Shown here piece by piece: positions 58,101-61,100 of a stretch of DNA of 64,000 bases. How positions within the stretch are numbered: position 1 is the first letter of the stretch; every line of letters begins with the position of its first letter. The position numbers were made by a program. Where the stretch lies: assembly GCF_055900595.2 (NCBI RefSeq), contig NZ_CM148325.1, one strand, 5' to 3'.

Positions 58101-61100
58101 GACAAAAGAGCTGACAGGTAAAGCCATGTTTATGGCGCTCAGGAGCCAGCGCCCACCTGCCGGGCTAATCCACCACTCCGATCGAGGTTCACAGTACTGC
58201 GCATACGATTACCGGGTCATCCAGGAGCAGTTTGGTCTGAAAACATCAATGTCGCGTAAAGGTAACTGTTACGACAACGCTCCGATGGAAAGCTTCTGGG
58301 GAACGCTGAAAAATGAGAGCCTGAGCCACTATCGTTTTAATAGCCGGGATGAGGCCATCTCAGTAATACGGGAATACATTGAGATTTTCTACAATCGTCA
58401 GCGTCGTCACTCTCGTCTGGGGAATATCTCCCCGGCAGCCTTCAGGGAAAAATATCATCAGATGGCTGCTTAAAAAAAGAACAAATGGTAGTGTCCGCTA
58501 TTGCCAGTACACCTCAGGATGCCGTCCGTCTCTTCTGCCGCTGGCCGCAGTTGCCTGCGTTTATGCTTCATTAATCATCATCGGGTTCGGATGTCCTAAT
58601 CACGGTTAATTATGTTCGGCCCTTCATGCTGCCGGTTTTGCAGCGCTACTACGGCGTCGGTAGCACACTGGCAGAGCGGCAGATCTCCCGGGGTAATTCG
58701 CACGACTTTCCTGCTTATGCCTGTCGGCTGTACGTCACCGCGTTCCGTGTGAGTATTGGGCTTTGGTGATTTGTGCCGCCTTAGCCGCTTCCTGTTCGTC
58801 AGGCCAGCATTTTGCATCCGGCTTCCTTCAGATTTCACCTCGCGATGAACATCCTTGCCTTCCGCTAACATTTCCCCTCACCGGGTGTTTGGAGAACTTT
58901 CACCTCTTAGTCGTTCTTCAGCCACCACAGTTGAAGAACAGCGCCAGTCACGGCGCACACAAAAAACGCGTAGTGAATACACTACGCGTCAGACTTTTTA
59001 TTTTTGTTAATTATAATTAAATGAATTTCACGTTAATTTTCAGATAGCGTTCCGGAAATTGATCTAACTCTTTTACAGCCTCAGGAACTTCATCTATTGT
59101 CACGACTTTGCTCACGATATCAGCCGGATTAATATTCAGCGTTGATAACATTTGCAGGGCTTCTTCAAATTCACCGGCACTGGTACGGGAACCACGTAAA
59201 TCTAGTTCTTTAAAGGTAATTAGATTAGTTGGTAACGATGTTTCCTGCTTTGGCCAACCAGTATAGGCTATACGCCCTGCAAATGAGGCCAGATCCAGGG
59301 TACTTCTGATTGCGCTATTTGCACCAGAGGCTTCCACCACAACCTGAGCCATCCTCCCTTGTGTAATATCTTTCACTGCCTCAATAACATTAGCTTTTGC
59401 GGAGTTTACTACATAAGGTACGCCGAGCGATTTCGCGTATTGCAACCGTTCATCGACAATATCAACCAGAATGGGAGTTGCTTTATAGTTCAACGAACTC
59501 AGGGCCGCCATAAGTCCAATAGCGCCTGCACCAATAATGACGACATGTTCACCTGCTTTCAATTGTGCTCGATGTAATGCGTGTAGGGCAATAGTTAAGG
59601 GTTCAGCCAGTGGCGCCATCTCTGACGGTACATTGTCAGGAATTTTGTGAATTAAGTGAGCCGGATGCGAAACCACTTCTTGCATAGCGCCATCAATATG
59701 TACGCCGATGACTTTTAAGTTCTCGCAGCAATTAGTTCTACCTACAGAACATGGATAACAGTGACCGCAATAAACATAGGGATCTACAATAACCCGGTCG
59801 CCCTGTTTGATATTTTGTGGTACCCCCTCACCGGTTTCCAGAACAATCCCGGTGACTTCATGTCCAATAATTCTCGGATAAGTTACCAGTGGGTTAGTAC
59901 CACGAAATGCACCGATGTCAGAACCACAAATTCCCGCTGCATCCACTTTAATTAAAACTTCATTATCTTTTCTTACTGGATAATCGACCAGACGGGTAGC
60001 AATTTCACCAGGTTTATTGATGTACACAGCTTTGACTTTCATTGACTTTCAATCCTTTATTTTTAACAAAAATGAATACCAGCAGACTTGAAATGATTGC
60101 TATGGCACCTGCAAGATAGAATGCGTAATCATATTTACCACTGAACTGGACAATAAAACCGGTTACCAATGGACCAATAATGCCGGAAATATTTGCCAGA
60201 CCGTGCATCGCACCGCCTACGCTACCTACTTTATCTTTATGCACTACATCCTGAATAACAGCCCAATAAATAGGTCCAGTTAGATAAAGCAGGAATAAGG
60301 AAACAGACATCAGCGTAATCGCACTACCAATAGAGGTAACAGTTCCGGAAACAGCGACACAAACCGCGGCCCCCGCAAGGCAACTGCCGAGAATTAAACG
60401 GCGAGAAAGTAAGGCATTTCCCGTAATACGATAAATAAAGTCAGAGCAGACGCCACCTAACACCATGCCAATTGCCCCAATAAACCACGGGATAACAGTT
60501 GCAATACTAATTTCTTTAATATCAATGTGTAATGAATGATTCAAATAGCTTGGAAACCAAGTAAGAAAGAAAAATAGAATATAGTTATAGCTAAAAAATG
60601 CCAGCGTGGTCGCCCATACCATCGGCTGCTTCATGTAATAACCAAGCGAAGGTGTACCTTTACCATCTTCGGCTAGAATAATATCGTCATGGTTTTCGAA
60701 ATCGACACGTTCTTCCGCTGCCAGACGTTTACTTTTTGACGGTTTATCACTGACAAAGAAGTACCACAGTAATACCCAAACTAGGCCAAATATAAATATG
60801 ATCCCAAACGCCGGACGCCAGCCAAGTGATATTGCCAGCAAGCCAACGACCGGACCAGAAATAGCGCCACCAAGTGGTGAACCAGCACTAAAAATACCGA
60901 TAGCTGTTGCCGACTCTTTACGCGAGATCCAGTTATTAATAATTTTATTTCCTGCTGCACTAACCGGGCCCTCTGCCATACCAAATAAAACACGTACGGC
61001 AAGCATTGTCCATAATCCGGTGACCAGACCGGTCATACCACAAAAAACAGACCACAACAGTGCAGCAACCAAAAATACTGTTTTGGGTCCAACTTTGTCA

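Follow-up and report, generated by a model that had tools for sequence, protein, structure and literature searches.

Two distant fragments in an E. coli mobile-element island as probable remains of one E.c.I6-family group IIC intron, divided by IS600, IS30 and an inversion

We find that two pieces of sequence which lie far apart in the window, the 64,000-nt stretch of DNA analysed here, are very probably the remains of one and the same group IIC (ORF class C) intron of the E.c.I6 family, which has decayed through insertions of IS elements and an inversion. The 5′ piece of 442 nt (58517..58958, minus strand) directly follows the terminator of a dehydrogenase gene, and the second piece (41473..42114, plus strand) is a remnant of the intron open reading frame. 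The order of events, that is, first IS600, then IS30 and then the inversion, can be read directly from the sequences, as can the target duplications and the loss of the catalytic parts. An earlier note on this DNA, made from the sequence alone, had already recognised a group II intron remnant, and on this point the Rfam match and the homology to reverse transcriptases (RT) agree.

The gene upstream of the 5′ piece is an open reading frame of the Zn-dependent alcohol dehydrogenase family (59017..60042, minus strand). It is the upstream 'exon' gene and its terminator is the target of the intron. The reading frame matches the NCBIfam models of Zn-dependent oxidoreductases, all below their curated cut-offs, and its counterpart in AMSCJX02 (L001) is annotated as a zinc-binding alcohol dehydrogenase family protein. 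A terminator scan places the intrinsic terminator of the gene at 58959..58990 (minus strand), with a stem of 11 bp and a loop of 4 nt (58990-58965) followed by TTTTTGT. The last bases of the terminator region presumably are the IBS1. The 45 nt upstream of the intron have a minimum free energy of -17.6 kcal/mol, which is within the lowest 1.6% of random windows. The intron 5′ end is at position 58958 on the minus strand and its first letters are GTGCGCCG; it begins 7 nt past the hairpin and its T-run, right after the dehydrogenase terminator as the earlier note had claimed. The GTGCG at 58958-58954 (minus strand) agrees with the GUGYG 5′ end of group II introns, and the homology among independent copies begins exactly there. 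The remnant has the same orientation as the upstream dehydrogenase gene.

The 5′ piece comprises domain I (D1) with an 18-nt deletion, D3, the start of D4 and the first 22 codons of the intron-encoded protein (IEP), and 40 nt with the D2 hairpin and the adjoining junction are deleted. The search with covariance models which the earlier note had proposed was carried out with Rfam on the whole window and gave three matches above the gathering score. One of these is RF02001 (group-II-D1D4-3), which matches 58849-58698 (minus strand) with 89.3 bits (E = 1.3e-16; gathering score 32). Intact relatives reach 132-140 bits with this model, and the drop from about 135 to 89 bits is explained by the deleted 18-nt segment of D1. 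RF02001 covers part of D1-D4, and only the 5′ domains of the ribozyme survive in the window copy.

The name of the family follows from a copy located after grpO in strain CFT073 (NC_004431, 4320108-4321914; L006 in our collection), which is listed as E.c.I6, ORF class C (Leclercq & Cordaux 2012; PMC3522654, Tables S2 and S3). E.c.I6 is the name in the Zimmerly database (PMC3522654), and a copy is given the name of a reference when its nucleotide similarity exceeds 90% (PMC3522654, Table S2). Another copy, L002, occupies the same grpO site, and the remnant is 91.6% identical to it over 982 alignable positions. With nine family members the identity is 91.5-93.6%, compared with 93-99% among these members themselves, and the remnant is the most diverged copy among those examined. 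By the 90% rule the window copy is another E.c.I6 fragment. Among 5,426 complete E. coli genomes about 1,250 contain related sequence, as do 350 plasmids. Intact copies have a length of about 1.9 kb and code for a protein of 462 amino acids (LtrA); examples are the copy on plasmid pO86A1 after hdaA and a chromosomal one in FDAARGOS_1251.

We analysed the protein of the intact relatives with regard to the intron class. It matches TIGR04416, the NCBIfam model for group II RT/maturases, with 405 bits (cut-off 300). Pfam detects RVT_1 and GIIM only, and no endonuclease (HNH) domain was found with Pfam in the 462-aa protein. Among the RTs with solved structures those of IIC introns are by far the closest to the IEP; it aligns over its full length to the GsI-IIC RT (6ar1; 466 bits, E = 9e-139), and further matches are 7uim (357 bits), 5hhj (285 bits) and 5hhl (282 bits), versus 145 bits for the IIA protein LtrA and 116 bits for a IIB RT. 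The entries 7uim, 5hhj and 5hhl, whose PDB names do not state the class, we take to be RTs of IIC introns. Domain V of the relatives aligns CCGCCGUAU to the Rfam consensus GAGCCGUAU, with CGC in place of AGC. In IIC introns the catalytic triad of domain V has the form CGC, and a small ribozyme is another of their traits; in the relatives the RNA outside of the reading frame amounts to about 432 + 76 nt.

The Rfam D1-D4 families carry no class label, and one could argue that the intron belongs to class D, E, F or IIB and lies behind a terminator by coincidence. This is however very improbable. PMC3522654 places the family in class C, and the IEP reaches 466 and 357 bits with solved IIC RTs, compared with 145 and 116 bits for the IIA and IIB proteins; in addition the catalytic triad is CGC, no more than about 510 nt of RNA lie outside the reading frame and hairpins precede the family at about 10 independent sites. 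The assignment to class C or group IIC and to the E.c.I6 family, as judged from these comparisons, is thus well supported. It is also what the earlier note had proposed, and the published listing, the closeness to the solved IIC RTs, the missing endonuclease and the upstream hairpins all speak for it.

The question raised in the earlier note whether related copies also follow terminators was addressed with 11 copies of the family, which represent about 10 different target sites. In each of them a hairpin is present within about 12 nt upstream of the GTGCG, often with a T-run next to it, and in nine of the 11 copies the 45 nt upstream have a folding energy that ranks in the lowest 2.2% for random windows of this length. 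Immediately ahead of the intron the 11 copies mostly show (T/G)T(A/G)T, a pattern which is consistent with a short IBS1. IIC introns use EBS1 and EBS3 only and have no EBS2-IBS2 pairing. Insertion downstream of terminator stem–loops is the known hallmark of IIC introns (PMC1702495, PMC3522654).

The intron is split by IS600. The junctions with the IS element are at 58516/58517 and 41472/41473, and beside each of them stands TCC (in the sense of the intron); the two copies of this 3-bp target duplication are 58517-58519 and 41473-41475. Copies annotated as IS600 share 99.1% identity with the IS element over 1264 nt. The rejoined remnant was aligned with four related copies, two of which have an intact reading frame, and in these uninterrupted relatives there is a single TCC at the site. 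Therefore this was a simple insertion of IS600 with a 3-bp duplication, and the duplication read in the earlier note as GGA, that is, TCC in the intron sense, is borne out. IS600 interrupts codon 22/23 of the intron reading frame. At this site an intact relative reads ...GRGDGRYPSGLHDG... and the window RRDGRHP|SELHDG.

A tblastn search of the window with the 462-aa LtrA of pO86A1 gave three matches in the expected order. Residues 1-22 match 58581-58516 on the minus strand (E = 2e-05), residues 107-236 match 41456-41863 (E = 4e-60) and residues 255-363 match 41829-42113 (E = 8e-38). The frame RRDGRHP/SELHDGGVRTLGIPTV, which the earlier note had followed across IS600, is thereby identified as the true protein frame. 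After SELHDG the next RT motif is RT2, and RT0/RT1 are missing. Given this 261-nt deletion just downstream we considered that the frame across IS600 might be accidental; this is ruled out since the tblastn matches give the true frame of the IEP and the deletion is in-frame. According to tblastn and alignment the second piece (41473..42114, plus strand) first carries RT2-RT4, with an in-frame stop and an insertion of 6 nt. Behind the deleted YADD region come RT6/7 and the beginning of the maturase (X) domain, which breaks off at residue 363 of 462. RT frames had been proposed in the earlier note for 41473-42116, and the RT similarity is clear from the E values of 4e-60 and 8e-38, but the homology stops at 42114.

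In the window the pieces are 17 kb apart and on opposite strands, in a region crowded with mobile elements, and one might suspect that they stem from different intron copies which by chance border copies of IS600. However, in AMSCJX02 and in about 150 other complete E. coli genomes both pieces are present on one strand with 99-100% identity, and in these about 150 genomes exactly one IS600 of 1264 bp parts them. The collinear order is MFS transporter, dehydrogenase, intron 5′ piece, IS600, RT piece, IS256-like element and IS66. In strain WEC IS600 with a nested IS30 lies between the pieces. Moreover the flanking TCC triplets match and only one TCC is present exactly there in intact relatives, and the protein frame runs straight across the junction. 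An origin from two copies can be practically dismissed, being already refuted by the collinear genomes, and we treat the two pieces as parts of one intron.

The window contains only one IS600, which is split by a nested IS30. Eight strains carry this nested IS30. Positions 1-941 of IS600 (numbered in the intron sense) correspond to 58516-57577 and positions 938-1265 to 41146-41473. The 3′ part with the end of orfB (57579..58516, plus strand) adjoins the intron 5′ piece, and the 5′ part with orfA (41146..41472, minus strand) was delimited from the junctions. A complete IS30 of 1221 bp (56358..57578, plus strand) bounds the inversion on the right. It is followed on its right by the 3′ part of IS600, and on its left it abuts the 5′ fragment of a different IS3-family element (about 56066-56357); the counterpart of this IS30 is annotated as IS30 in L007, L008 and L015 (WEC). 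At the left boundary there is a second IS30 in inverted orientation (40229..41145, minus strand), which extends from element position 1 to about 916. It is joined to the 5′ part of IS600 through its left end, and the rest of it is replaced by an IS911-family element. A self-BLAST of the window matches 40229-41171 to 57274-56332 with 99.3% identity. The IS30 ends abut both break points of IS600 with a 2-bp AC duplication at 41146-41147 (GT, which is AC on the IS600 strand) and at 57579-57580.

In WEC the dehydrogenase, the intron 5′ piece, the 3′ part of IS600, one IS30, the 5′ part of IS600 and the RT piece are all collinear. The junction sequences are identical to those of the window and there is no inversion; the flanks map to the window at 44251-40229 (reverse) and 56332-61262 (forward). 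We infer that in the lineage of the window the nested IS30 recombined with a second IS30 of opposite orientation, and that the segment enclosed by the two was thereby inverted. The second IS30 would have resided in another IS3-family element, the one whose 5′ fragment is left at about 56066-56357. This follows from WEC, AMSCJX02 and ZF8-1 and not from two reciprocal target duplications, because the right flank of the partner IS30 is missing owing to the truncation by the IS911-family element. ZF8-1 has a matching IS911-family 3′ fragment beside its IS30. Thus the earlier reading that IS600 and an inversion split the intron is correct in that the halves are separated relative to the collinear E. 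coli genomes, but the recombining repeats are IS30 and the breakpoint lies in the IS30 nested in IS600. An inversion between two copies of IS600 is ruled out, as self-BLAST and the junctions show one IS600 and the inverted repeats are IS30. We also considered FY10 as the source arrangement. It matches the IS30/IS600/RT junction to 100%, but its halves are on one strand and it carries two extra intron-bearing copies of ISEc31; thus it is not simply the source.

The decay of the window copy can be mapped on the intron of pO86A1 with its 1,899 nt, to which the following positions refer. Missing are an 18-nt segment of domain I (188-205), 40 nt with the D2 hairpin, which is capped by GUAA, and the adjoining junction (316-355), 261 nt or 87 codons for RT0/RT1 (513-773), 130 nt of the YADD region (1144-1273), a single base (1296) and the last 375 nt (1525-1899), where the maturase domain ends and domains V and VI lie. 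The 261-nt deletion is in-frame and lies between GATGGCG repeats, and with the loss of the YADD region the frame is shifted too. In addition codon 7 of the copy is a stop codon, a further stop lies in frame within RT3, and 6 nt have been inserted. About 43% of the intron length is gone. The four internal deletions, the nested IS30 and the inversion breakpoint inside IS30 had escaped the earlier note.

The models RF01998 (D2/D3) and RF00029 (D5/D6) match the relatives and not the window; the RF01998 match was abolished by the deletion of 316-355. For domains V and VI no RF00029 match was found in the window with Rfam at the gathering score and none at E ≤ 1 near the remnant, and a search elsewhere in the window for the missing domains V/VI (Rfam) and the C-terminus of the IEP (tblastn) found none of them. 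The window copy has no catalytic domain V and is a family member by descent, though dead. Judged by its sequence, this remnant, deprived of the catalytic core and of a functional RT, cannot splice or move. Since it lies behind a terminator and has no domain V, no RT active site and no continuous reading frame, it should do nothing. The description in the earlier note of a dead intron that is split, frameshifted and 3′-truncated by an IS256-family element agrees with this map of deletions and stops.

The truncation is caused by a terminal fragment of an IS256-family element of about 78 nt (42115..42195, plus strand), a second copy of which is found at 55218-55295. It is followed by the left part of a frameshifted IS256-family element (provisionally 42196..42935, plus strand), which is annotated as 'transposase, frameshifted' in AMSCJX02. 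Its transposase fragment (42268-42750) matches the NCBIfam model NF033543 for IS256 family transposases with E = 1e-26; as only a fragment is present, the score stays under the curated cut-off. Intact introns end with ...CCTACTCGAT, and ACTCGAT at about 42177-42183 was considered as a relocated intron 3′ end. We rejected this candidate, which lies within the 78-nt IS256-family fragment that recurs at 55218-55295 and is without a match to domains V/VI.

We suggest that the history of the locus proceeded in the following steps. By analogy with other IIC introns an active copy would have retrohomed immediately 3′ to the intrinsic terminator of the Zn-dehydrogenase gene and in the orientation of this gene. 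The IIC ribonucleoprotein recognises a terminator stem–loop together with an IBS1 of 3-5 nt and the intron RNA reverse-splices into the DNA; a IIC protein devoid of an endonuclease then makes the cDNA, which is probably primed at the replication fork. Deletions of the slippage type would then have taken the 18-nt segment of D1, the D2 hairpin with its junction, the 87 codons of RT0/RT1 and the YADD region, and stop codons would have arisen. An IS256-family element would have removed the last 375 nt including the catalytic domains V and VI, and IS600 entered the reading frame at codon 22/23 and duplicated TCC. The internal deletions cannot be ordered relative to the IS600 and IS256 insertions because every genome that bears the remnant has all of them. 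A search of 5,426 E. coli genomes as well as 72,556 plasmids found no copy of the remnant free of IS600; thus all of the lesions are old and shared. In a sub-lineage IS30 inserted into IS600 with duplication of AC. Finally, in the lineage of the window, homologous recombination of the nested IS30 with a second, inverted IS30 would have flipped roughly 15 kb (about 41146-56357), which would have left the intron halves on opposite strands and 17 kb apart.

It might be argued that the 5′ fragment is not neutral debris and has instead been co-opted, for example to provide the dehydrogenase operon with a structured 3′ UTR or with a read-through RNA, as it is located directly downstream of the gene in sense orientation and is 99-100% conserved in about 150 genomes. 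The high identity is however explained by a recent common ancestry of the whole island, since the flanks are 99.9% identical too. Furthermore a strong terminator precedes the fragment, structural elements (the 18-nt segment of D1 and D2) are gone from it and it is the most diverged member of the family, as is expected for neutral decay. We therefore give co-option hardly any weight. It is just as doubtful that the 442-nt fragment, transcribed by read-through of the terminator, forms a stable domain I RNA which could affect the expression of the MFS-dehydrogenase operon, although co-option, if true, would explain the persistence in about 3% of complete E. coli genomes. In our view the 5′ fragment is a neutral remnant of the intron.

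Several features of the locus are shared with known introns. The E.c.I6 copy of CFT073 has the same 5′ end (GTGCGCCGTGACTGGCGC) and like the window copy it is located just after a terminator, that of grpO. Its reading frame is disrupted in the reference strains as well (PMC3522654). The window copy differs in that it is found at another locus, the Zn-dehydrogenase gene, in that it has lost domains V/VI and in that IS600 with a nested IS30 resides within it. The copy on pO86A1 (NC_008460, an F-type plasmid), which follows the fimbrial gene hdaA, is 92.5% identical to the window copy at the nucleotide level, and its LtrA has 71-82% amino-acid identity in the three surviving tblastn segments. It too is preceded by a terminator hairpin. 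Unlike the window copy, the intact copies on F-type plasmids keep the full reading frame, the D2 hairpin and domains V/VI, and by their sequence they may still be mobile. With B.h.I1 of Bacillus halodurans and other characterised IIC introns, and with the GsI-IIC RT, the family has in common the insertion behind a stem–loop and the RT-maturase without endonuclease. These introns come from other hosts and are distant in sequence, and it is these introns that have been studied biochemically.

This kind of element is already known and the remnant is ordinary genomic debris. In enterobacteria group II introns mostly end as inactivated fragments in islands rich in mobile elements, and 111 of 198 detected copies were fragments (PMC3522654). 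Beyond annotation the finding matters little, but it provides a clean example of the targeting of terminators by IIC introns and of intron fragmentation in islands. About 150 complete E. coli genomes have no annotation for the locus or call it 'hypothetical protein', and the proper label is E.c.I6-family group IIC intron fragment. From the nesting (IS30 within IS600 within the intron) and from the two collinear intermediates, AMSCJX02 and WEC, one obtains a dated series of markers with which rearrangements of the island could be followed among strains. The fragment of the window is absent from those listed for 90 strains in PMC3522654; the sole E.c.I6 fragment listed there has 976 bp and comes from SMS-3-5, and it probably corresponds to the roughly 998-bp type of L014.

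The collinear arrangement that precedes the inversion is kept in Escherichia coli strain WEC (NZ_CP114592, 1441500-1449500). In this intermediate the intron remnant holds IS600, which in turn holds the nested IS30, and the junctions are identical to those of the window. The IS30/IS600/RT junction is common to eight complete E. coli genomes.

At the boundary of the inversion lies a full-length IS911-family element on the plus strand (about 38950-40228; orfA, 39016-39354; orfB, 39381-40220). It adjoins IS30 at the junction 40228/40229, at about internal position 916 of IS30, and the right end of IS30 together with everything past it is substituted by the IS911-family element. 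This substitution suggests that an additional IS-mediated deletion took place at the inversion boundary.

In plasmid pO86A1, which carries an intact intron, a 68-nt piece of an IS256-family left end is located 4 nt past the 3′ end of the intron. The piece (positions 4402-4469 of locus L004) is 92.6% identical to window positions 42196-42263, and this left end is the same as that flanking the window remnant. Elements of this IS family are found repeatedly adjoining E.c.I6-family introns.

Among the E.c.I6-like introns, the members of one sub-family are longer by 19 nt at the 5′ end. This extension is seen in related introns at locus L003 (about 3981-4000) and at L005, L009, L010, L013 and L014. 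In sequence it resembles a near-tandem copy of the first bases of the intron, GTGCGCCGGGCATGGCGCGTA then GCGCCGTGACTGGCGC, so that the 5′ splice site has two candidate positions. The target sites of L003 and L012 are homologous, yet the extension distinguishes these two loci.

The window further contains an intact, intron-free ISEc31-like element of the IS3 family (47948-49161). In E. coli FY10 two inverted copies of the same IS each bear an E.c.I4-like group II intron with an ltrA of 502 amino acids; therefore the window represents the empty-site state of this intron target. An Rfam match to the Hfq-binding sRNA isrC (47980-48102, plus strand, 150 bits) falls within the window element.

Finally, an autotransporter gene is interrupted in the window by an IS10 copy (52279-53607, with RNA-OUT at 52324-52393), leaving ORFs on either side (50238-52316 and 53607-55073). 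The uninterrupted gene in FY10 (locus L008) measures 3,498 nt (11274-14771), and the two alignment blocks between both loci overlap by 9 bp at L008 12731-12739, in agreement with the IS10 target duplication.
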